NCBI GenBank assembly: GCA_934772045.1
Contig: CAKVMH010000004.1
Span: 7,491 to 71,490, forward strand
Length of the DNA: 64,000 bases
From: an uncultured Clostridia bacterium
GTDB lineage: Bacteria; Bacillota; Clostridia; Christensenellales; UBA1242
Reading direction: 5' to 3'
Each line of letters begins with the position of its first letter. Position 1 is the first letter of the stretch. The translations under genes were made by a program, and so were the position numbers. Below, in pieces: positions 1,771 to 63,179 of this stretch. Under the pieces are notes generated by a model, which was not told where the DNA came from, did no database searches, and saw only the letters and a program-made list of their open reading frames with translations.

Positions 1771-2152
1771 GTTGAGCAAGGGTAATTAAAATATTATTGT
1801 ACATAATAAAATTATGACATATTTTAATTAGCTTGCATAGAAGCAAAACAAGGAGAGCAAGAGTAATTAAAATATATTTACATACACTATATGTATGACA
1901 TATTTTAATTAGCTTGCATAGAAGCAAAACAAGGAGAGCAAGGATAATTAAAATATTATTGCACATAATAAATTATGGCATATTTTAATTAGCTTGCATA
2001 GAAGCAAAACAAGGAGAGCAAGAGTAATTAAAATATATTTACATACACTATATGTATGACATATTTTAATTAGCTTGCATAGAAGCAAAACAAGGAGAGC
2101 AAGAGTAATTAAAATATTTTTACATACACTATATGTATGACATATTTTAATT
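1771..2152. repeat. Tandem array, ~81-bp unit x ~4.7
   Basis: Unit starts (GACATATTTTAATTAGC) at 1816, 1897, 1977, 2058 and 2139. Each unit has the 12-bp inverted repeat ATATTTTAATTA...TAATTAAAATAT around GCTTGCATAGAAGCAAAACAAGGAGAGCAAG. Two alternating ~22-nt linker variants. Confidence 0.9.
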
Positions 2153-2355
2153 ACCACGCGAAAGCAAAAAAATTAATAACAACAAACCATTTGCTTGCGG
2201 TTACTATATTTGATAGGTATCATCACATTTATCCGGCAATGGTGTTGTACTTTGACATAAACAGGCCTATCCCTATTAGGGAATATCGGTGGGCAGAATA
2301 TATGCCGTTAATAAAACAAGCAAATGTTCAAATTCAGGATAAGCGCATGAAATAG
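2137..2355 (+). CDS. Hypothetical 72-aa ORF; its first 5 codons are part of the upstream repeat unit
   Basis: ORF track only. No SD and no recognisable motif. Confidence 0.25.
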   Translation: MTYFNYHAKAKKLITTNHLLAVTIFDRYHHIYPAMVLYFDINRPIPIREYRWAEYMPLIKQANVQIQDKRMK

Positions 2356-2478: not shown

Positions 2479-2526
2479 TTTCAAATTAATTATGTGTTGG
2501 GTTTATATTTTAAACCTTACATTAAA

Positions 2527-3060
2527 TTACATGTTTTCAATTGAAATTGTGCCAGTTTTTTCAAATTCCTTTTCAACTTGACCATAGTCTTTTGCTAATT
2601 TGATGAAACGGTAAACAAAGTAACCTAAAATGCCAGCAACAACAACTGCAACAATGGCGATGTGCCAACCCTCAACAAATTCATCTAAAACAATGCTTGC
2701 TGGAGGTGCTTTAAATATAACTTCTTTAACAGCAAGTTCTTCACATTCTTGTTTAGTGCGAAGGCTTGTTTCACTGATTTGATTAGCACTAAGGGCAGGA
2801 GCATTTTTGTCGTTTTGCTTTGCACTTGGATTGTAGAAAAGGACAAAATACTTGTCATCTTCAACTTCAATACAATAAGCAACTGTTTCACCAGCTGTCA
2901 TAACCGAATTTGGGCCGTATTTCATAAACGATTTAACGCCGATTGAATAAATCATACCACACATAAGGATAACTGCTATAAAACAAGCGCAAACAGCAAT
3001 CAATGTCTTTAAAGACATTTCAATAAACTCACGCTTTTTCATTTTTTTAATAAATTCCAT
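2527..3060 (-). CDS. Membrane protein, unknown function (two predicted TM helices)
   Basis: 177-aa ORF. Hydrophobic segments LIAVCACFIAVILMCGMIY and IAIVAVVVAGILGYFVY. Weak SD (GGGGA) upstream. Confidence 0.7.
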   Translation of the reverse strand: MEFIKKMKKREFIEMSLKTLIAVCACFIAVILMCGMIYSIGVKSFMKYGPNSVMTAGETVAYCIEVEDDKYFVLFYNPSAKQNDKNAPALSANQISETSLRTKQECEELAVKEVIFKAPPASIVLDEFVEGWHIAIVAVVVAGILGYFVYRFIKLAKDYGQVEKEFEKTGTISIENM

Positions 3061-3333
3061 AATTCCCCACTAAATGCCAATTTGGCTTAATTAATAATAG
3101 GATAAATAAAATAATTGCATTTGTCAAAGCTTTTGGGAAGATTTTCAAAATTTTATCCTTTTTTGTCGGTTTTTGTTTGGTAAAGTTCAAGTTTGCTCTT
3201 TTTTAGAACATACAACCGTAAAATAAAAACAAATCATTAAAAATCTGGTTCACCATATAAATTAGTGCCTTTTATTACTATTAAATAATTGACTGTACTT
3301 TACAAAATTATAAAATTATGTTATTATTTTTGC

Positions 3334-3726
3334 ATGAAAAATGAAATAAAGGACGAGATATACCAAAAAAATGCGTTAACATTGGCGTATTTGGGTGACG
3401 CAGTTTTCACACTCATGGTGCGGGAGTATCTCATAAACAAAACCGATTTCAAAGCCAACATGCTAAACAAAATTGCCAACGGAATAGTGTGTGCAAAAAA
3501 TCAGGCAATAATTATGGAGCAAATTAGACCGCTTTTGAATGAAACAGAAACTGAAATTGCAATGCGTGCAAGGAACGCGCACCCTAACAATAAGGCAAAA
3601 AATTCAAGTTTGCAGGAATACAGCTTGGCAACTCAGTTTGAAGCGCTTGTTGGCTTTTGGCATTTGGAAAAACAAAACACAAAATTAAACGAAATTTTTA
3701 AAAGGTATGTGGTTGAAAAATTATGA
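3334..3726 (+). CDS. mrnC: Mini-ribonuclease III
   Basis: LAYLGDAVFTLMVREYL motif. Lies upstream of rlmB-sigH as in Bacillus yazC-yacO-sigH. Internal ATG at 3334 chosen as start. Confidence 0.85.
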   Translation: MKNEIKDEIYQKNALTLAYLGDAVFTLMVREYLINKTDFKANMLNKIANGIVCAKNQAIIMEQIRPLLNETETEIAMRARNAHPNNKAKNSSLQEYSLATQFEALVGFWHLEKQNTKLNEIFKRYVVEKL

Positions 3727-40000: not shown

Positions 40001-40660
40001 GTTGTTAAAGGTCAAACAGAAGAAAGTTACATTCTTCCATTTGGTTCAACAATCAAAGTTAAACAAGGCGATGTAATCACCCCAGGTACAGCACTCACCG
40101 AAGGTCCATTGAACCCACGTGATGTATTGCGTACACGCGGTGTGAAAGCCGTACAAGAATACTTACTTAACGAAGTTCTTGAAGTTTATAAATCACAATC
40201 TGTTGCTATTAACGCAAAACACTTGGAAATTATTATTAAACAAATGCTTCGTAAAGTTAAAATTGAAAACGCTGGCGACACAGATTTGTTACCAGGCGAC
40301 ATTGTTGATATCCGTGTTTACGAACAAGCTAACCAAAAGGCTTTGGCAGAAGGTGGTGTTCCTGCAACTGCTAAACGTGAACTTCAAGGTATCACAAAAG
40401 CAAGTTTGACAACTGAAAGCTTCTTGTCTGCTGCATCATTCCAAGAATCAAGCAATGTGTTAACAGAAGCTGCCTTGAAGGGTAAAGTTGACCACTTGAT
40501 TGGTTTGAAAGAAAATATCATTATCGGTAAGATGATACCTGCAGGTACAGGTGCACCTGCTTATCGTAATGTCCTTCCAAAACAAGTTAAGGAAGATAAC
40601 AGCCTATTCACAAACGAAAATGTCGACATGAAATTTGACGACATTGATGAAGAAGAATAG
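37088..40660 (+). CDS. rpoC: DNA-directed RNA polymerase subunit beta'
   Basis: 1190 aa with zinc motif [20 protein letters not shown] and catalytic NADFDGDQM. Confidence 0.98.
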
Positions 40661-40794
40661 AACTTAAACAAAATTTCATGCAAAAGGTGGCTTAAAAAGG
40701 GTCACCTTTTACATCAATTTGACGACATTGATGAAGAAGAATAGAACTAAACAATATTTCATGCAAAAGGTGGCTTAAAAAGGGTCACCTTTTT
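40632..40794 (+). repeat. 84/83-bp tandem duplication: rpoC last 8 codons + stop + terminator hairpin, two copies
   Basis: 40632-40710 versus 40716-40793 are near identical (1 indel, 1 substitution). Each carries AAAAGGTGGC-TTAAAAAG-GGTCACCTTTT; the second is followed by a longer T run. Confidence 0.9.
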
Positions 40795-50741: not shown

Positions 50742-51230
50742 ATGACAAAAGCTAAATCTGGTTTTTTAAAAGCTGGGGCAATCTTCGGCATAATTTGGGC
50801 AGGTTTCTTTGCAATATTCGGCATGACGTTATTTACAATTCAAGGTGAACTATCGCATAAATATATAATTGAAGATATTATGGAGTACAAGAAAACAGAA
50901 TACGATACTATTAATAATTTTGATGGCTCAATTACATATAAGTTAACAAAAGATGGCGAAGTAAAGGAAATTAAGGGCGACCAATTAGACGATATCATTG
51001 AATTATCTAAAAAAGTTTTAACAGTCGGTGGCATTTATGTGTTAGCATTTTCAGTTGCTTCACTTGCACTTTCAATTCTAGTGCTTGTAAACTCAGAAAA
51101 GGAAAAGGCAAACAAAGGTTTAATAATTTCATTACTTTGTGTCAGCGTTTTCTCCGCCAACATTTTAACCTTAGCATTTATGATTGTTGCTTTGTGTTTA
51201 AAGGATAAAAAAGTAGAAGAAGTGAAATAG
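50742..51230 (+). CDS. Small membrane protein (DUF4064-like?)
   Basis: Four hydrophobic helices. SD AGAGGTG. Confidence 0.7.
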   Translation: MTKAKSGFLKAGAIFGIIWAGFFAIFGMTLFTIQGELSHKYIIEDIMEYKKTEYDTINNFDGSITYKLTKDGEVKEIKGDQLDDIIELSKKVLTVGGIYVLAFSVASLALSILVLVNSEKEKANKGLIISLLCVSVFSANILTLAFMIVALCLKDKKVEEVK

Positions 51231-51560
51231 AAGCAACATCTAATGGGAAGTGGAACGACCTTTAAATTGTTGCTTTGTGTTTAAAGGATAAAAAAGTAGA
51301 AGAAGTAAAATAGAAGCAACATCTAATGGGAAGTGGAACGACCTTTAAATTGTTGCTTTGTGTTTAAAGGATAAAAAAGTAGAAGAAGTGAAATAGAAGC
51401 AACATCTAATGGGAGTGAAACGACCTTTAATTTGTTGCTTTGTGTTTAAAGGATAAAAAAGTAGAAGAAGTGAAATAGAAGCAACATCTAATGGGAGTGG
51501 AACGACCTTTAAATTGTTGCTTTGTGTGTAAAAGATAAAAACTAGCAACAATTTAATAAT
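51183..51560 (+). repeat. Tandem array, 83/82-bp unit x ~4.5, unit = last 15 codons + stop of ORF 50742 + ~35 nt
   Basis: Unit starts (ATTGTTGC) at 51183, 51266, 51349, 51431 and 51513. The final unit is degenerate. The 8-bp stem AAGCAACA/TGTTGCTT spans each junction. Confidence 0.92.
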
Positions 51561-54639: not shown

Positions 54640-57600
54640 CTAACCTTCAATAACAACGATGTCGTCCTTATTTAAAATTGTTTCAAGTTCAAAAATTAAA
54701 CTTTGCCTTACCATAACACCCTGTGTTAGTTTATAGGCTTTGTTTGTTGCGGTGTCCTTAACGCAAACTGTATCAATGCCGACATATCCGTCTAAGATTT
54801 TTTTAACAGCTTGGTGCAATATGCCGTCGCTCATATTGTAGCGCAAACATAATTTTTTAGGTTTTACAATTTCTATTTCAGTTTCTTGCGTTTCAGGTTC
54901 GGAAGGGTCTTGCGTGGAAGCATCGCTCAATTGTTCAATGCTGTCTACTGTGATTGAAGGGCGTTTACCATCGCGCACTGAAAATCTACCTTTGATTGCA
55001 ACAAGTGTGTCTTTTTGTATTTCGTCTTTAAATTTGTCGTATGACTTGTTGAAAAGGACGGCTTCAAAACTTCCAGTTAAATCTTCAATTGTAAGGAATG
55101 CCATTTTGCTTCCGGTTTTGGTTTGAATTGTTTTAATTTCGGTTATTACGCCACCACAAGTCACAACATCGCCATTTTTTAAGCCGTTATAAAGTTCTTC
55201 TTCTGGGCCAAAATCTTCTAATTCCGCTGTGCCATTATCTTCTTCATCGTCAAGGCTTTCGCTTGGTATCATGCTGGAATCAAAGGTGAATGTTTTAATT
55301 GTGTCCATAAACCCGTCAAGTGGGTGGCCAGACAAATAAGTGCCGGAAATTTCACGCTCATATTGAAGTTTTACAGTGTTAACATATTCATTTATGTTAG
55401 GGTACTCATTTTCTTCAATAAGGTTAGTGTCTTCAATAAAATCGCCAAACAAGTCCATTTGTCCGTTCATCGATTTCTTTTTCCTTTCAATTGCGCGGTC
55501 AACCATTATGCTGTAAACCGCCATTAATTGGCTCCTTGGTCTGCCAAAGCAGTCAAACGCACCGGCCTTGATAAGTGATTCAATACAACGCTTGTTCAAC
55601 GCTTGAGAGTTGGAACGCCAAATAAAGTCTGCTAAATCTTTATAATCGCCGTTTGCTTTCCTTTCTTCAATAATCTCGTCAATGACGCCAACGCCCACAT
55701 TTTTAAGGGCGGCCAAACCAAAGCGGATAACTTTGCCGTCTGTGCTGAAATAGGTTTCACTTAAATTGATATCTGGTGGCAAAACTTGAATTTTTTCCGA
55801 TTTAGCATAGGCAATGTAATGCTTTAACTTTTCAATGTTTGTTATGCGGTTGTTAAGGGTGGAAGTGATAAATTCAGGCAAGTAGTAGTTCTTTAAATAC
55901 GCGGTTTGGTAGGTGATAAGTGAATACGCCGCCGCATGCGATTTATTAAACGCGTATGAAGCAAATGCTTCCATTTCGTTCCAAATTTTGTTTGCAGTTT
56001 CTTCGCTTACGCCATTGTTGATTGCACCAATAATTTTTGGGCTGTACTTGCCGTGGTCGTCGGTGTAGGCTTCACGCCCATAAAGGAAAGCGTCCTTCCA
56101 CTTCAACATTTCTTCCATTTTCTTTTTACCCATGGCACGCCTAATCATATCGGCTTGACCAAGAGTGAAACCTGCCATTGCTTGGCAAATTTTCATAACC
56201 TGTTCTTGGTAAACGATGCACCCATAAGTAACTTTCAAAATAGGTTCCAAAATAGGGTGGTCGTAAGTGGTGTCTTCTGGGTGGTGTTTGTTGTGAACAT
56301 ATCTAGGAATACTATCCATTGGGCCAGGGCGGTAAAGCGACACTGCCGCCACAATGTCTTCTATACAGGTTGGTTGTAATTCTTTTAAGAACTTTTTAAA
56401 ACCAGCCGATTCAATTTGGAAAATGCCTTCCGTGTTGCCAGTTGAAATGAGTTTAAATACGTTAGGGTCATCGTAACTGGCATGTTCAAAACTGATGTCA
56501 ATATTACGTGTTTTCTTAACAAGGTTAATTGTGCCTTTAATATCGGTAAGGTTCCTTAAACCCAAAAAGTCCATTTTTAAATGCCCAAGGTGCTCCATAT
56601 CAACACCTTCGTACTGCGTCGTAATATCTTCGCCGTTACGGCTCAATGGAACAAAGTCTTCCAAAACGCCTGCGCCAATGATAACGCCACAAGGGTGGGT
56701 GGTGCACTGGCGTGGGAAATCTTCCACTTTAAGGGCAATGTCCACAACGCGTTTAACTTGTGGGTCAGTGTTATACATTTCAACCAGTTCAGGCACTGCA
56801 TAAACTGTGCCAAAATCTTTATCGCCCGGCTTTGGCACATGGAAACCAAAAGCCTTAGGCAAAATTGGGCTTTTATACATAGGAATGATTTTTGTTATTT
56901 TATCGCAAAGAGAATAAGGCACACGCAAAACACGCCCCACATCTTTAATGGCGTTTTTCGCTTTCATTGTGCCAAATGCAATGATATGTACAACGCGGTC
57001 GTCACCATATTTGCGCCTTACATAATCAATAACTTCGCCACGGCGCACATCTTCAAAGTCTACGTCAAAATCGGGTGCGGAAACCCTTTCGGTGTTAAGG
57101 AAGCGCTCGAAGAACAGTTCAAATTTAAGTGGGTCAATGTTAGTAATGCCCATAGTGTAAGCCACAAGCGAACCAGCACCAGAACCACGCCCGGGTCCAA
57201 CAGAAATGCCCATTTTGCGCGCGGCGTTGATGTAATCCCACACAATAAGGAAGTATTCAATAAACCCTTGCTTTTCAATGACGCCAATTTCGGTTGCAAT
57301 ACGCTCCCTAATTTCATCGGTGTATTCGCCATATTTTTCTTTAACACCTTTGTCCACAAGGTTCATAAGGTATTCTTTCGGTGTTGCGCCAACTTCGGCA
57401 TTGTAACCGCCTTCCGGGGTATAACTAGGGAAGTGGTATTTGCCGTATTCAAACGAATAATTACATTTGTTTGCAATTTCAATGGTGTTATCCAAAGCTT
57501 CTTCATCATTTGGCAAACCTTCAAGCATTTGGTCGTAAGTTTTAAAATATAATTCATTAGTAGGGAATTTTAACCTGTCTGGGTCGTCAACAAACTTTTG

Positions 57601-58266
57601 CATAGCAACGCACATCAAAACATCTTGCATTTCTGCGTCTTCTTTGTAGAGGTAATGTACATCGTTTGTCGCAACAAGTTTAATGTCGAACTTTTTAGAG
57701 TATTCCCTCAATTTTTCATTGACAATTTGCTGTTCAGCAATGCCGTTTTGTTGAATTTCAAGGTAAAAATCGTCTTTAAAAAGATTTTTGAACCACAAAA
57801 TGAGTTCTTCTGCTTTTTTATATTGTTCTTGAATAATCAATTTAGGAATGTCACCAGCCAAACAAGCCGACAAACAAATTAAACCTTCATGGTACTTTTC
57901 AAGGGTTTTGTAGTCAATCCTAGGCTTGTAATAAAAACCATCACGGAAGGCAATAGTGTTCAGTTTGCAAATGTTTTTGTAACCTTGCTCGTTCTTAACC
58001 AAAATTATAAGGTGAGAGCGTTCTTGCTTGCCAGTTTTGTTGTAAAGGTCTTCTGCGACATAAAATTCCGTGCCAAAAATTGGTTTAATGCCTTCTGCCT
58101 TGCATGCGTCAAAAAAACGGGTGGAAGCGTACATATTGCCATGGTCGGTCATCGCAATTGCAGGCATGCCGTATTCTTTTGCTAATTTAACCGCTTTTTT
58201 AATGCGCGTTGCACCGTCAAGCAGTGAAAATTCAGTGTGTAAATGCAGATGAACAAAAGGTTTCAT
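54640..58266 (-). CDS. dnaE: DNA polymerase III alpha subunit, DnaE type
   Basis: N-terminal PHP domain FVHLHLHTEFSLLDGA, PDFDVDF catalytic motif, OB fold near the C-terminus. Confidence 0.96.
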   Translation of the reverse strand: MKPFVHLHLHTEFSLLDGATRIKKAVKLAKEYGMPAIAMTDHGNMYASTRFFDACKAEGIKPIFGTEFYVAEDLYNKTGKQERSHLIILVKNEQGYKNICKLNTIAFRDGFYYKPRIDYKTLEKYHEGLICLSACLAGDIPKLIIQEQYKKAEELILWFKNLFKDDFYLEIQQNGIAEQQIVNEKLREYSKKFDIKLVATNDVHYLYKEDAEMQDVLMCVAMQKFVDDPDRLKFPTNELYFKTYDQMLEGLPNDEEALDNTIEIANKCNYSFEYGKYHFPSYTPEGGYNAEVGATPKEYLMNLVDKGVKEKYGEYTDEIRERIATEIGVIEKQGFIEYFLIVWDYINAARKMGISVGPGRGSGAGSLVAYTMGITNIDPLKFELFFERFLNTERVSAPDFDVDFEDVRRGEVIDYVRRKYGDDRVVHIIAFGTMKAKNAIKDVGRVLRVPYSLCDKITKIIPMYKSPILPKAFGFHVPKPGDKDFGTVYAVPELVEMYNTDPQVKRVVDIALKVEDFPRQCTTHPCGVIIGAGVLEDFVPLSRNGEDITTQYEGVDMEHLGHLKMDFLGLRNLTDIKGTINLVKKTRNIDISFEHASYDDPNVFKLISTGNTEGIFQIESAGFKKFLKELQPTCIEDIVAAVSLYRPGPMDSIPRYVHNKHHPEDTTYDHPILEPILKVTYGCIVYQEQVMKICQAMAGFTLGQADMIRRAMGKKKMEEMLKWKDAFLYGREAYTDDHGKYSPKIIGAINNGVSEETANKIWNEMEAFASYAFNKSHAAAYSLITYQTAYLKNYYLPEFITSTLNNRITNIEKLKHYIAYAKSEKIQVLPPDINLSETYFSTDGKVIRFGLAALKNVGVGVIDEIIEERKANGDYKDLADFIWRSNSQALNKRCIESLIKAGAFDCFGRPRSQLMAVYSIMVDRAIERKKKSMNGQMDLFGDFIEDTNLIEENEYPNINEYVNTVKLQYEREISGTYLSGHPLDGFMDTIKTFTFDSSMIPSESLDDEEDNGTAELEDFGPEEELYNGLKNGDVVTCGGVITEIKTIQTKTGSKMAFLTIEDLTGSFEAVLFNKSYDKFKDEIQKDTLVAIKGRFSVRDGKRPSITVDSIEQLSDASTQDPSEPETQETEIEIVKPKKLCLRYNMSDGILHQAVKKILDGYVGIDTVCVKDTATNKAYKLTQGVMVRQSLIFELETILNKDDIVVIEG

Positions 58267-59144
58267 TAGTTTTCTCCTTTATGCTTTTTGTAAATATCAA
58301 TAATCTTGTCAAGGCGGTATTTTATGCCAGCACGGCTGATGTCTTTATTTAATGCTTTCTGCAATTCACTGAGTGGACCATAAGGGTTGGCATAACGCAG
58401 TAAGGCAATTTCTTTTAAATTTTCGTCTAACAAATCTAAATTGTCGGTGTCGATAAAATAATTGATTGCTTTCATTTGCTCGGCACTGGCGTAAAGCGTT
58501 TTATCAAGGTTAGATTCAAAACAATTGTTCTGCCTGTTTGCCGTGTTACGAATTTCGCGCACTGCAAGGCTGTTTTGCACATCAAGGGCAGTGTACTTGG
58601 CACCAAGAAGCACCAAAAAGTCACAAATGATGTCACTATGTTTTGTGTAAAACACAACACCATTTTGGCGTGGCTTTGATTTAAAATCTAAATTAAACTC
58701 AACTAGTAATGATTTTATAAAGTTTTGACTTTCTGGACGCACAAAAAACTCTAAGTGATAGCCTTTTGAATTTTGATTGTTGTCCAACTCGCAATTAAAA
58801 TTGCCAACCAACAAAAATGCGGTTTTAAGGAGAGTAAGCCTGTCGCAATCGGTTACAAAAAGCGAATAATTAGGCTTATCGTCGATATTGCAATCAACCA
58901 AAATGCTTCGAACGTCGCCGGAAAGCGCCAAAAAATCTTTTAAACTGTTAACAATAATATTAGGGTAAAAGTTGTTTACAATTTTAACAACTTTTTCACA
59001 AATAAAGTCGGTGCTAGAAATTATTATACGGGAATTTGCAATGTCCACAAGCCCGCAAAAATCAATAACAACCGATAAAAAAGCATGGCTACAACAATTG
59101 TTAGACGGTATAGAATTAATGATTTGTTGTTTATAGCCAAGCAT
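58266..59144 (-). CDS. whiA: Sporulation/cell-division regulator WhiA
   Basis: Start at MLGYKQQI (AAGGAG upstream). LAGLIDADG-like N-terminal domains. C-terminal HTH region LSELQKALNKDISRAGIKYRL. Confidence 0.88.
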   Translation of the reverse strand: MLGYKQQIINSIPSNNCCSHAFLSVVIDFCGLVDIANSRIIISSTDFICEKVVKIVNNFYPNIIVNSLKDFLALSGDVRSILVDCNIDDKPNYSLFVTDCDRLTLLKTAFLLVGNFNCELDNNQNSKGYHLEFFVRPESQNFIKSLLVEFNLDFKSKPRQNGVVFYTKHSDIICDFLVLLGAKYTALDVQNSLAVREIRNTANRQNNCFESNLDKTLYASAEQMKAINYFIDTDNLDLLDENLKEIALLRYANPYGPLSELQKALNKDISRAGIKYRLDKIIDIYKKHKGEN

Positions 59145-59145
59145 T

Positions 59146-59922
59146 TTAACTCCTTTTCTTGCGTTTTTCCTTTTTGAATTTTGGTAAATCGTTATAATTG
59201 ACAATGCAACTATCTGGTAACCTTAACCTTAGGGCTGCTTCCAAGCCTAAATGACATTCGCCAACGCGTTTGCAGTGGTGTGCATCACTGTCAATCACAA
59301 ATTTACAACCTAATTGATAGCATGTCAAAATTTCTTTATCGCTCATGCCAAGGCGTTTGCCGTTAAGTTCAATCAATGTGTTTGTTTCTTTTGCAACACG
59401 CGCAACCTTTTCAACGTCAACTTTACATGCGTGGTTAAGGTGAGTGATGATGTCAATGTCATATTTTCGCATTGCGTTTATGTAAGCGTTAGTGTTCTTT
59501 TCACGCTGACGTTTGCTTGTGTGGTGGAAGATTTCACACATAATGTTTTTGATAACAAACTTCCATTGTTCACGTGTGCTTGTCGATTTAACAAACCTGT
59601 GAAAACCGCACAAAACAATGTCCAAATTGTCGTAATCGGACTCCACAATATCAATGTCACCTTGGCTACTTATCAAATTTGCTTCAACGCCAAGCAAAAC
59701 ATCGATAGGGTAACGCTCTTTGGCGTCTTCAATGTCCGCTTTAAGTTGTGGAATATCTTTGCGCCTAATGCCATAAAGTTTTTGGTTAAAACCATGGTCA
59801 GTAATTGCAATTTGCCTAAGCCCTTTTTGATAAGCGCAACGCACATTTTCTTCCACGGTTGATTTGCCGTGGTTGTTGCGCGAATATTTCGTGTGGGTGT
59901 GATAATCTGCCAAAATAGCCAT
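59146..59922 (-). CDS. PHP-family metal-dependent phosphoesterase
   Basis: MAILADYHTHTKYS...ITDHG PHP motifs. Confidence 0.85.
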   Translation of the reverse strand: MAILADYHTHTKYSRNNHGKSTVEENVRCAYQKGLRQIAITDHGFNQKLYGIRRKDIPQLKADIEDAKERYPIDVLLGVEANLISSQGDIDIVESDYDNLDIVLCGFHRFVKSTSTREQWKFVIKNIMCEIFHHTSKRQREKNTNAYINAMRKYDIDIITHLNHACKVDVEKVARVAKETNTLIELNGKRLGMSDKEILTCYQLGCKFVIDSDAHHCKRVGECHLGLEAALRLRLPDSCIVNYNDLPKFKKEKRKKRS

Positions 59923-60086
59923 AATAAACTCCTTTTGAAGGCTAGTTTGGCTTAATCTGCCAAAATAGCCATAATAAACTCCTTTTTGATGGCGATTTGG
60001 CCTAATCTGCCAAAATAGCCATAAATAACTCCTTTTGATGGCGATTTGGTCTAATCTGCCAAAATAGCCATAATAAACTCCTTATG
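59903..60086 (-). repeat. Tandem array, 50-bp unit x 4: SD + ATG + first 6 codons of the PHP gene (three upstream copies end in a stop)
   Basis: Unit starts at 59904, 59954, 60004 and 60053. Mini-ORFs ATGGCTATTTTGGCAGATTAR at 59952-59972, 60002-60022 and 60051-60071 (minus strand), each 6 nt after AAGGAG. Confidence 0.92.
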
Positions 60087-60258
60087 ATATTCCTTAAACT
60101 AATCCTGCATGTTATTATAACACGGCTGTTAAAAAAAAACAATCGTTTTACATTTTGCGTTAAACATTTTAAAATTTTTGGCATAAATTTAATTTGTTAA
60201 ATGTTACTTTTTATGCCAGCCATAACAAACCGTTATGGACTTGGATATTGCTTTGCTA

Positions 60259-60286
60259 TTGACAAATTGCGAATTTATGCTATACT
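60259..60286 (+). promoter_or_regulatory. Sigma-A-type promoter TTGACA-16-TATACT
   Basis: Hexamers at 60259-60264 and 60281-60286. Confidence 0.6.
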
Positions 60287-60349
60287 TAAGCCAAAAGAAA
60301 TAATAGGAGTTATTTTTAATTAATTAACAGTTCATTAAAAGGAGAACGT

Positions 60350-60808
60350 ATGTTTAATCGTGCTAAAAGGAAAAATTTAATTTTGGAATTGGTCGACCGC
60401 TATGATTATCTGGAAAAATTAACGGCAAACAAAAAAGTGCTAGGGAGTAAGGATTACAAAATATACCAAAATGAAAGGAAAAATTATATTGGAAGCACTA
60501 AAATTTGCGTAGATGTTGAAAGTTTAATTGACACTATATTATATATTGATGACACTTCAAATTCAAGCATAACTGGTTATCAAAAACCTAATATGGCTAG
60601 TGACAGGGCTTTAGAAGTTAAAAAGGCAGTTGGTTTGATATGTAGCCTTTTTGATGAAAGTGAAATGCCAGCATTGTTGGAAGAATTAGGCAAGTCAAAT
60701 TACATCACTTTGACAGTTGCGCAAATCAACAAAAATGAAACAATCAAAAAATCTGTAATTAGTTTGACACAGTGTAATTCAGCATTTGTTGATACACTGA
60801 ATTTATAA
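60350..60808 (+). CDS. 152-aa protein, unknown function
   Basis: SD AAAGGAG. No recognisable motif. Confidence 0.7.
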   Translation: MFNRAKRKNLILELVDRYDYLEKLTANKKVLGSKDYKIYQNERKNYIGSTKICVDVESLIDTILYIDDTSNSSITGYQKPNMASDRALEVKKAVGLICSLFDESEMPALLEELGKSNYITLTVAQINKNETIKKSVISLTQCNSAFVDTLNL

Positions 60809-60823
60809 CATTAGGGAGATGTT

Positions 60824-61324
60824 ATGCTTGAAATAACAAAATATATAAAAATCTATGAAAAATTTTCTGACCGACAAAAAGAATTGAAAGACAAATTGTA
60901 CAATTCAGTTTCTTCACTTGAAAAAGAAGAACAGGATAATTTAATTGCAGAAATTGATAGTTTAGACGCCAAAATGCAAGAAATTGAAAGCAAAACATTT
61001 GTATGCGAGATTAGCACTCTTAGGGAAAATGTTATTAAAATAATGCACAGGAAAGGCTATTTTGCCAACATGCCATACAAGGATTATGATGAAATCCGTT
61101 ATTATAAAGATGCAATGGCAAACCATGAAATTCGCAGAATGTACATTTTAGACGATGAATTTTGCAAAAAACAAATGGAAAAGTTTGGTGATTACGGTGA
61201 AATAGAATTACGTATAGATTTAATCCTTAATTCCTCAATTATGTACGAATCGGTTCTTCTTATGGAAAAGATGATTATGAAAAGAAAATATTTAAAGGAC
61301 AAATATAACATAGACATTTTTTAA
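60824..61324 (+). CDS. 166-aa protein, unknown function
   Basis: SD AGGGAG. Coiled-coil-like N-terminus. Its 3' end overlaps the convergent murB stop by 4 nt. Confidence 0.7.
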   Translation: MLEITKYIKIYEKFSDRQKELKDKLYNSVSSLEKEEQDNLIAEIDSLDAKMQEIESKTFVCEISTLRENVIKIMHRKGYFANMPYKDYDEIRYYKDAMANHEIRRMYILDDEFCKKQMEKFGDYGEIELRIDLILNSSIMYESVLLMEKMIMKRKYLKDKYNIDIF

Positions 61325-62238
61325 TCAACATATTCGATTTCGCGTTCTAAGGTGGCGGAGTATTTGGCGTAAATCACTTCTTCAATTTTTGTGATAAGTG
61401 CTTTTACATCCTTGCTGGTTGCGTTGCCTATATTCACAATGAACCCCGCATGTTTTGTTGAAACTTGTGCACCGCCGATTGTCGTTCCTTTTAACCCAGC
61501 TTCGTCAATCAATTTGGCGGGCAAAAAATTTGATCGCTTAAACACACTGCCTGCGTTGGGGTAACCTAATGGTTGGGCAGTTTGTTTTTTTGTTAAGGCG
61601 GTTTTTATGTTTTGTTCAATCCTTGATTTGTTTGATTTATCCAATTTTAATTTAACTTGAGTGATGATAAAATTTCCACTACTAAAAACACTGCCACGAT
61701 ATTTAAATTTACATTCCTTATTTGAAAGCGTATAGGTTTTAAAATATTTAATGCTTGTGTTCTTAGATGTTTTGTAACTGACAATGTCAGCCTTTTTCGG
61801 TGGAACATAAAATCCTTTAACATAAACCACAATGTTTGCTAATTCGTGCCCCCATGCACTTAAATTATTGAAAACGGCACCACCAAGCGTAGATGGTATG
61901 CCAGCAAATGCTTCTAATCCTGATAAGTTGTGCTTTTTTGTAATGTCAATTAATTCAGCCATTTTTATTCCAGCATTTGCAACAATATTTTCGCCTTTAA
62001 TCTTGCATTGTTTTGCACAATTTACGACAATTGCACCATTATATCCTAAATCATCAAAAAGCAAGTTTGCACCGCACCCAACCACCTTATATTTAATGTT
62101 TTGCATGCAACAATTTTTAATAACTTTTTTAATGGCATTGTTTGTATGCACTTTAAATAAAAAATTTGCATTTCCACCGATATTGAAAGTGCAAACTTTT
62201 TTTAATGACGCGTTTTTATAAACTTCAATTTTTTTCAC
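61321..62238 (-). CDS. murB: UDP-N-acetylenolpyruvoylglucosamine reductase
   Basis: FAD-binding pattern GGNANFLF, GCGANLLF, GIPSTLGGAVFNN. C-terminal MurB domain. Confidence 0.92.
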   Translation of the reverse strand: MKKIEVYKNASLKKVCTFNIGGNANFLFKVHTNNAIKKVIKNCCMQNIKYKVVGCGANLLFDDLGYNGAIVVNCAKQCKIKGENIVANAGIKMAELIDITKKHNLSGLEAFAGIPSTLGGAVFNNLSAWGHELANIVVYVKGFYVPPKKADIVSYKTSKNTSIKYFKTYTLSNKECKFKYRGSVFSSGNFIITQVKLKLDKSNKSRIEQNIKTALTKKQTAQPLGYPNAGSVFKRSNFLPAKLIDEAGLKGTTIGGAQVSTKHAGFIVNIGNATSKDVKALITKIEEVIYAKYSATLEREIEYVD

Positions 62239-63179
62239 TAATCAAACACTTTTGCAATTCTACACCTTAAAATTGCATTCTCCATGTCATTATATATGCC
62301 TTCCACGTAAAGTTTGTTTTTTAGGGCGGAAAACAAGTGATATTCACTAAGTTTTGCTTGGTTTTCACTAGCAAAACAACGCGCACAAAATTGCTCGATG
62401 ATGTTGTCGGTTCGCGTGCGAGCAATGTATTGTAAAAGGTCAGTGTAACTATCAATTGGTGTAATGCTCGCATTAGTTCTGCCAATTTTATTTAAGTTAT
62501 CAACCCTAAACACATCTCGCGCAGTTCCTAACAGAGCATGGTCTTGGTGATACACAAAATTTTTGTATGTGTCAAAAGGTGTACCAAAATTCACTGCAGT
62601 CAATTTGTTGTTTGCAAGGGCAATGGTTGGGCAGTTGTAACCTGTTGTGCCATATTCAATTCTATTTTCGCTTACACCATGTGAAAACATAGCATAGCCA
62701 CTTACAATGTATGGCAAAGCATAAACCTTTCCGTTGAATTTGCATGCATCAACAAGTTCACTTCTTACATCATGATTGTCATCAAAAGGGCATAGGTATT
62801 TTAAAATTGTTTTCCCAACACCAAAACCAAAAGAAATAATGTCAGGTTGTCCATCTTTTAATAAAATTTCAAGTTTTTGCGGTTCCACTTTTTGAACATT
62901 AATAAGCACACCGTCATTTTCTTTTTCTAACTGCCTAGCAATGCTTTTTAGGTAATCAATACGCGGTTTTGCGCCACCTTCAAATGTTTCAACATGCCAT
63001 ACGGTGTAAATTTTTGTTTCAACAACTGGTTTATTGTAAATTTCAAAGATATTGGCTTTTTTAAGCCCAAAACAGAACACATAAACACAAATGGCAACAA
63101 TGCAAATTAGACTGAAAAATTTAACAAAGATTTTGTTGTTAAACTTTTTTAAATTAAATGACGCAAAAAATTTTTTCAT
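62238..63179 (-). CDS. Membrane-anchored protein, unknown function (possible solute-binding-protein-like fold)
   Basis: N-terminal TM helix. 1-nt overlap with the murB start suggests co-translation. Confidence 0.65.
   Translation of the reverse strand: MKKFFASFNLKKFNNKIFVKFFSLICIVAICVYVFCFGLKKANIFEIYNKPVVETKIYTVWHVETFEGGAKPRIDYLKSIARQLEKENDGVLINVQKVEPQKLEILLKDGQPDIISFGFGVGKTILKYLCPFDDNHDVRSELVDACKFNGKVYALPYIVSGYAMFSHGVSENRIEYGTTGYNCPTIALANNKLTAVNFGTPFDTYKNFVYHQDHALLGTARDVFRVDNLNKIGRTNASITPIDSYTDLLQYIARTRTDNIIEQFCARCFASENQAKLSEYHLFSALKNKLYVEGIYNDMENAILRCRIAKVFD

Follow-up and report, generated by a model that had tools for sequence, protein, structure and literature searches.

A probable strain-variable tandem duplication of a PHP gene start in the leader of PHP-whiA-dnaE in an uncultured Clostridia bacterium

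Leader-peptide attenuators of the trp, his, and erm types combine a short leader ORF with alternative RNA pairings. Bacterial upstream ORFs (uORFs) and upstream ribosome-binding sites act by translational coupling or by occluding the main ribosome-binding site (PMC13285730). The mycobacterial MIRU loci, as summarized in PMC5056196 (citing Supply et al. 1997), consist of tandem intergenic units of 40 to 100 bp that follow the orientation of the adjacent gene and contain small ORFs; the same account describes them as a family dispersed over 41 loci that are related in sequence, and as lacking palindromes. Finally, quasipalindromes are well-established sites of mutation by template switching (PMC7202029, PMC7954356).

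We compared with these systems a tandem array located upstream of the genes PHP, whiA, and dnaE in 64,000 nucleotides of DNA from an uncultured Clostridia bacterium (the window; GCA_934772045.1, contig CAKVMH010000004.1, positions 7,491 to 71,490). The closest public genomes are those of uncultured gut Christensenellales labelled Candidatus Onthoplasma, a group with reduced genomes of about 0.8 to 0.9 Mb (PMC12306168). The reading that we favor, at a probability of roughly 0.7, is that of a VNTR: the 5' end of the PHP gene would have been duplicated in tandem, in copies that vary from strain to strain, within the leader between a conserved promoter and the real start.

Anatomy of the array and its leader

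Three genes are arranged one after another on the minus strand:

59146..59922, minus strand: gene for a PHP-domain phosphoesterase of 258 aa, whose first 20 nt are the repeated segment (Pfam PF02811, E=2.3e-13)
58266..59144, minus strand: whiA, 292 aa as called in public assemblies, beginning 2 nt past the PHP stop (by homology)
54640..58266, minus strand: dnaE, 1208 aa, with a start that overlaps the whiA stop codon (by homology)

An earlier sequence-only reading of this DNA had proposed that the promoter-distal copy of the repeat continues as the real PHP gene. This is confirmed by the 258-aa ORF with its PHP domain, by WhiA and DnaE coming next, and by the N-terminus MA(I/L)LADYHTH, which is conserved in the closest relatives and thus identifies this copy (unit 4) as the real gene start. 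Against NCBIfam, the PHP protein matched generic PHP-domain and PolX-type phosphoesterase models only, with scores below the curated cut-offs. Three neighboring ORFs, at 60350-60808 (152 aa), 60824-61324 (166 aa), and 62238-63179 (313 aa), had no Pfam or NCBIfam match.

At 59903-60088, Tandem Repeats Finder reported an array with a period of 50, 3.8 copies, 91% matches, and a score of 305, which corresponds to four head-to-tail units of 49 to 50 nt on the minus strand (60088-59903). The 20-mer ATGGCTATTTTGGCAGATTA has exactly four minus-strand copies, with the A's of their ATGs at 60071, 60022, 59972, and 59922, where 0.01 copy would be expected by chance. Both results bear out the 50-bp unit, occurring four times, that had been noticed previously. 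Each repeat unit combines a ribosome-binding site with the 20 nt that open the coding sequence and with a linker of 16 to 17 nt, and the array can be written as X-u1-(u2-u1)n-Y, in which u1 is the ribosome-binding site plus ATG..GATTA and u2 is the linker. In units 1 to 3, AAGGAG and 6 nt are followed by ATG GCT ATT TTG GCA GAT and then by a stop codon. Codon 7, for which the earlier reading gave TAG, TAG, and TAA upstream versus TAT in the real copy, indeed reads TAG in unit 1 (60053-60051), TAG in unit 2 (60004-60002), TAA in unit 3 (59954-59952), and TAT in unit 4; the Shine-Dalgarno sequence claimed for each copy is present as well, as AAGGAG with a 6-nt spacer before all four ATGs. The peptide MAILAD encoded by the mini-ORFs equals the N-terminus of the PHP protein. 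The elements of the array, as they would be met by a ribosome, are the following:

60078..60083, minus strand: ribosome-binding site AAGGAG of unit 1 (from the sequence)
60051..60071, minus strand: mini-ORF 1, MAILAD then TAG (from the sequence)
60038..60050, minus strand: anti-start arm 1, ACCAAATCGCCAT, predicted to form a hairpin with AUG 1 (-9.4 kcal/mol)
60029..60034, minus strand: ribosome-binding site AAGGAG of unit 2, with the spacer TTATTT (from the sequence)
60002..60022, minus strand: mini-ORF 2, MAILAD then TAG (from the sequence)
59989..60001, minus strand: anti-start arm 2, GCCAAATCGCCAT, predicted to form a hairpin with AUG 2 (-12.5 kcal/mol)
59979..59984, minus strand: ribosome-binding site AAGGAG of unit 3 (from the sequence)
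59952..59972, minus strand: mini-ORF 3, MAILAD then TAA (from the sequence)
59938..59951, minus strand: anti-start arm 3, GCCAAACTAGCCTT, predicted to pair with AUG 3 (-15.5 kcal/mol) or with the real AUG 4 (-13.9 to -15.2 kcal/mol)
59929..59934, minus strand: ribosome-binding site AAGGAG of unit 4, that of the real gene (from the sequence)

From the last stop before the gene, that of mini-ORF 3 (59954-59952), the distance is 17 nt to the main ribosome-binding site and 29 nt to the real ATG.

Promoter elements and a short sequence of special interest for the history of the locus lie upstream of unit 1:

60137..60142, minus strand: weak -35 candidate, TTGTTT (from the sequence)
60114..60122, minus strand: extended -10 element, TGtTATAAT (from the sequence; the T-run and TGnTATAAT are kept in other strains and in the closest species)
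60099..60108, minus strand: GCAGGATTAG, candidate remnant of an ancestral ribosome-binding site (first six bases) plus unit-like TTAG (by comparison with L003, L007, and L008, loci of related species; the junction is GCAGATTAG)

The -10 box occupies 60119-60114, with the TG extension at 60122-60121 and a T-run upstream. A candidate -10 had been placed near 60105-60115 from the sequence; the TATAAT box is present, but its position was off by a few bases. About 43 nt separate the extended -10 from the first decoy ATG downstream of it, and an internal promoter was rejected, as the scan revealed no promoter-like site inside the units on the minus strand. From the conserved upstream promoter we infer the transcription start, and the units would then be transcribed as a leader of about 185 nt. 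The scan of the minus strand of the leader (59600-60500) found no terminator-like site. A search of 59800-60400 against Rfam (E<=1) gave no match to a known structured RNA leader (riboswitch, T-box, or ribosomal-protein leader), and at the gathering score the whole window yielded two tRNAs only.

The plus strand of unit 3 contains a promoter-like sequence, TTGGCT-17-CATAAT (59947-59975), a consensus match only, which is antisense to the leader and faces the divergent 40-aa and 152-aa ORFs. Weaker versions of it, TTGGTC and TTGGCC, were seen by eye on the plus strand of units 1 and 2.

Variation within the species and absence from other species

It is hardly credible that the array is an assembly artefact, that is, a mis-assembled repeat. 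Assemblers did have trouble here: one scaffold (L085, ~2056-2100) has a gap of 10 Ns at the array border together with a duplicated CATAAGG, and three Logan contigs (L163, L165, and L166) break exactly at the array, starting at AGGAGTTATTATGG. Against such an origin, the four units of the window are distinguishable, the same sequence was obtained from independent assemblies of different samples, and different yet related arrays are present in other strains. In fact, no fewer than three further metagenome assemblies (L001, L002, and, save for its scaffold gap of Ns, L085) carry the array of the window unchanged, which rules out an error peculiar to a single assembly. When WhiA and the 152-aa neighbor were used for exact look-ups, only the same clone was returned, plus one scaffold whose N-gap at the array had given the impression of a 17-nt variant.

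Strain loci were collected from other samples by taking near-identical proteins in the 90% cluster of the PHP protein, and their contigs were compared:

Window, L001, L002, and L085: PHP protein 258/258; three upstream units; stops TAG, TAG, and TAA
L161, from a Hadza gut sample: PHP protein 257/258; three upstream units; the CTAGC-type arm is in unit 1 and not in unit 3; unit 1 has TAT
L167: PHP protein 257/258; two upstream units; unit 1 has TAT
L162 and L164: PHP protein 253/258; one upstream unit, whose ribosome-binding site is degenerate (TAAGGG); part of the flank differs

The two contigs of the L162 type have a one-base difference in the arm. Unit number, unit order, stop codon, and quality of the ribosome-binding site all vary between strains, although the copy numbers come from short-read assemblies, in which identical units may be collapsed; for instance, L161 holds a collapsible exact tandem stretch of 98 nt, such that its difference in unit number from L167 (4 versus 3, the real copy included) is not secure. 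Assembly collapse cannot account for the differences in the sequence and order of the units. The two hallmarks of a VNTR, head-to-tail copies and polymorphism of unit number and composition within one species, were thus both found.

What becomes of the first decoy differs greatly between strains. In L161, all units are 49 nt and the first ATG is in frame with PHP, giving a 49-residue extension. The public call at 2501-3538 of this locus (protein P0011) is 345 aa, 87 residues too long, an artefact of the array that arose because TAT and the 49-nt units let an ORF from upstream of the promoter read through. In L167, the ORF of unit 1 is at least 79 codons long and runs out of frame across the real start.

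Outside the species, no second copy of the gene start was found upstream of PHP in any of 80 species representatives or 74 metagenome loci (PHP identity of 90% or less), and Tandem Repeats Finder detected no array at the orthologous locus in any of these 80 and 74. A scan of JGI metagenome contigs with the PHP protein yielded no contig of the same species, the best match being 89%. These data indicated that the array is confined to one species-level lineage, since it is absent from all other species compared. In L003, L007, and L008/L057, which have no array, GCAGGAG-N7-ATG follows within about 20 nt after TGnTATAAT. GCAGGA is still found directly after the promoter in the window (60108-60103), where it now runs into TTAG and the array.

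In other Onthoplasma-like species (L006, L016, L017, L019, and L022, among others), the stretch of leader that separates the conserved -10 from the ribosome-binding site varies in length between about 20 and about 180 nt, and the leaders upstream of PHP often contain palindromes of the AACAAT/ATTGTT type. This range of lengths and these palindromes suggest that the leader evolves quickly across the genus.

The strain comparison bears directly on the three roles that the sequence-only reading had proposed for the units, namely, a ribosome-loading or standby device, a leader-peptide-type regulator, and a neutral duplication of the 5' terminus. It had named free variation of unit number among strains as grounds against the functional roles; such variation was looked for and found, with one, two, or three upstream units. 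The standby option is not supported, given the variation of unit number, order, stops, and ribosome-binding site and the lack of the array in other species; the leader-peptide option fares no better given the variation in the unit 1 stop and in unit number and the absence of the array from other species. Free variation among strains and absence outside the species support the neutral option.

We therefore regard it as very unlikely that the locus is a leader-peptide attenuator, in which translation of MAILAD would be sensed, or a standby device by which it would deliver ribosomes to the real start. Such a role could draw on the strong AAGGAG at 6-nt spacing before each ATG and on the alternative pairings described below. 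Nevertheless, the peptide is simply the PHP N-terminus, no T-run follows the hairpins and the scan of the leader's minus strand gave no terminator-like site, and no Rfam leader family was matched. Furthermore, the unit 1 stop is missing in L161 and L167, the ribosome-binding site of L162 is degenerate, the 29 nt between the last stop and the real ATG provide no geometry for overlap or occlusion, and all other species compared do without the array.

Inverted linkers and a proposed mutational origin

Each upstream unit contains an inverted repeat, ATGGCTATTTTGGC / GCCAAATCGCCAT, which was absent from the sequence-only reading. The linker between the stop and the next ribosome-binding site carries a 13- to 14-nt reverse complement of the start region; it reads GCCAAATCGCCAT or GCCAAACTAGCC, whereas a perfect complement would be GCCAAAATAGCCAT. 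This complementarity is far beyond chance, as only 6 to 11 of 2000 linker shuffles scored equally well. No other copy of the linker was found elsewhere in the window. A simple tandem duplication, with the upstream flank (TTTAAGGAATATCAT) or the coding sequence past codon 7 (TCACACCCACACG) as the origin of the linker, was considered and rejected, with identity at about the chance level by eye. Since the linker resembles neither flank, an inverted templated insert is the preferred source.

We then evaluated local hairpins and pairing probabilities in place of the global fold of the leader, which was uninformative (a very diverse ensemble, z = -1.66). The local hairpins of units 1, 2, and 3 have predicted energies of -9.4, -12.5, and -15.5 kcal/mol, respectively, versus -2.0 kcal/mol for the real start with its downstream sequence, and the local folds of all decoys in all strains fall between -9.4 and -15.5 kcal/mol. 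The real AUG has no downstream pairing partner. Each arm may instead form a stem with the AUG that follows it, at -9 to -15 kcal/mol and with the ribosome-binding site in the loop; these alternative pairings account for the diffuse ensemble of the global fold. In the predicted equilibrium ensemble, the decoy AUGs are unpaired with probabilities of 0.10, 0.28, and 0.24, and the real AUG, at 0.39, is only moderately more open. The unit hairpins precede CAAAAGGAG, and no T-run is present there.

The 20-nt start segment is identical in 7 of the 7 distinct decoy copies seen, whereas the linkers show many differences, most of them in the internal loop, with the stems GCCAAA and GCCAT or TAGCC spared. 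The selected real start may drive concerted evolution, the quasipalindrome may be a mutational hot spot, or selection may act on the hairpins or decoys; each of these could produce the invariant start and the spared stems.

On the favored reading of a VNTR, the first event would have occurred in a recent ancestor of the species, by replication slippage or serial template switching at a hairpin-prone site, and would have re-copied the ribosome-binding site and start region while adding a short inverted templated stretch. Units may later have been gained, lost, and reshuffled via slippage or unequal exchange, and the three upstream units probably descend from one another. The mini-ORFs would be by-products: placed beside the first G or A of the linker, the TA of the Tyr codon becomes TAG or TAA. 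Two of the four possible bases suffice for a stop at this junction. GCAGGATTAG may mark a deletion that joined the ancestral ribosome-binding site (GCAGGAG) to a unit (GCAGATTAG), in which case an earlier decoy has already been lost. Moreover, each decoy AUG would be sequestered by its own arm, such that decoys would be poorly used and the duplication nearly harmless; free variation is what one might expect if hairpin-silenced decoys make the duplication cheap. The effect on PHP-whiA-dnaE expression is probably small and incidental, judging from these predicted structures and the strain comparison. Several observations speak against this explanation: the start segment is invariant in the decoys and the stems are spared, the predicted fold is very heterogeneous with a real AUG only moderately more open than the decoys, and anti-start arm 3 can also pair with the real start, at an energy close to that of its own hairpin.

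The window contains three further strong arrays, with units of 81 to 83 nt and all at gene ends. Array A (1774-2153, plus strand) has 81-nt units of two alternating subtypes with a super-period of 161 nt and duplicates the start of a 72-aa ORF (2137-2355). Its decoys read ATG ACA TAT TTT AAT TAG (MTYFN) and the real copy has TAC in place of TAG, which agrees with the sequence-only claim that the Tyr-codon-to-stop junction recurs in this array. Each of its units has a 12-nt perfect inverted repeat, TAATTAAAATAT / ATATTTTAATTA, over codons 3 to 6. There are five units in the window and two to three elsewhere (L174-L176), some with TAA, although assembly collapse is possible for these counts. In the spacer before array A, GTCATTCTGAGCG(A/G)AGCGAAGAA occurs twice (window 1538 and 1605, plus strand) and looks like a small intergenic repeat element.

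Array B (40627-40793, plus strand) consists of two tandem copies of the last 8 codons of rpoC and its terminator hairpin; the T-run is lost in the first copy (CCTTTTACATC) and kept in the second, and the array is identical in two other assemblies. Array C (51183-51541, plus strand) repeats an 83-nt unit 4.3 times at the 3' end of a gene for a membrane-like protein of 162 aa. It shifts the C-terminus from KDKN-stop to KDKKVEEVK-stop, and its unit variants are shuffled between strains (L168-L171). An array-less allele ending in KDKN-stop was predicted from the anatomy of array C and was then found: P0016, of 157 aa, is otherwise an identical protein, with a downstream gap of 88 nt versus about 400 nt.

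There is no significant sequence similarity among the four arrays. A 10-mer, ATAGAAGCAA, common to A and C had suggested a single repeat family for all four, but it was not significant and this candidate was rejected. The loci of related species (443 kb) contained just three weak arrays, in a sample that covers this one neighborhood only.

A copy-number-tunable leader is a rival that several of the above-described findings could serve. On this view, the translation or mRNA stability of PHP-whiA-dnaE would depend on the series of hairpins and decoy ribosome-binding sites, and gain or loss of units would be heritable, reversible tuning in the style of a contingency locus; possible routes are protective 5' stem-loops, decoys that compete for ribosomes, or a relay in which an anti-start arm pairs with the preceding or the following AUG. 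The array does lie in the leader downstream of a conserved promoter, hairpin stems are kept in all strains around a variable internal loop, each arm can pair with either of two partners at similar energies, no decoy departs from the common ATG segment, and strains differ in unit number; in addition, there is precedent in bacteria for uORFs and upstream ribosome-binding sites that modulate a downstream gene (PMC13285730). However, there is no conservation beyond one species, and the strains tolerate a first decoy that ends after six codons, extends PHP in frame, or overlaps its start over a long stretch out of frame, which argues that the decoys are little used or that the exact level of expression is of no great importance. 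Arrays of unrelated sequence at the 3' ends of other genes show the same behavior, which points to a mutational process rather than a design specific to this locus. A tunable leader is, in our judgment, unlikely.

More speculative is a scheme that spans the arrays: serial template switching at hairpin-forming gene termini would repeatedly build arrays of 50 to 83 nt units in this species, the array in the PHP-whiA-dnaE leader would be kept because it is self-insulating, with each decoy locked by its own inverted copy, and unit number would act as a heritable expression dial on an operon that includes the replicative polymerase. We consider this combination improbable.

A regulatory device at this place would have been unusual, and the strain comparison makes such a reading unlikely. 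What the locus offers is a clean natural example of a bacterial gene start duplicated, probably without harm, in which one can see junctions that create instant stops, an inverted templated insert that is predicted to fold decoy starts away, and gene callers that are misled. With the three other gene-end arrays, this uncultured lineage carries several polymorphic minisatellites, which could serve as strain-typing markers and could help to study template-switch mutation in a genome of this small size (PMC12306168).

Comparison with known systems

The PHP array has in common with the trp, his, and erm attenuators a short leader ORF and alternative pairings, but it lacks their regulatory codons, arrest motif, terminator, and conservation: neither an intrinsic terminator nor a conserved leader ORF with regulatory codons or an arrest motif was found. 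With the uORFs of PMC13285730 it shares a ribosome-binding site and start codon that precede the main start within the 5' leader. The uORFs described there overlap or directly adjoin the main ribosome-binding site, whereas the stop of mini-ORF 3 falls 17 nt short of it, and the PHP upstream ORFs, unlike them, are tandem copies of the main start whose form is not conserved between strains. The geometry for coupling or occlusion is thus missing in the window, and it is inconstant within the species, as the unit 1 ORF of L167 does overlap the start out of frame. With units of 49 to 50 nt, the array also differs from a simple-sequence contingency locus, which has a 1- to 9-nt unit and undergoes phase variation.

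The likeness to MIRUs, as these are portrayed in PMC5056196, extends to head-to-tail units, location at a gene boundary, orientation with the flanking gene, small ORFs, and strain-variable copy number. In contrast to that portrayal, the four arrays of the window are mutually unrelated, each being built from a local gene end, and the PHP unit holds a strong inverted repeat; with a linker that is unique in the window and no significant similarity among the arrays, no dispersed family of the MIRU type is apparent.

The template-switch events at quasipalindromes in PMC7202029 and PMC7954356 are single mutational events in reporters or genomes, whereas the PHP array is amplified and polymorphic, with a mechanism deduced from its sequence only. 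The correspondence lies in the junctions: as in those events, the insert is an inverted copy of the neighboring sequence, and the differences between units of the PHP array cluster at the imperfect positions of the palindrome.
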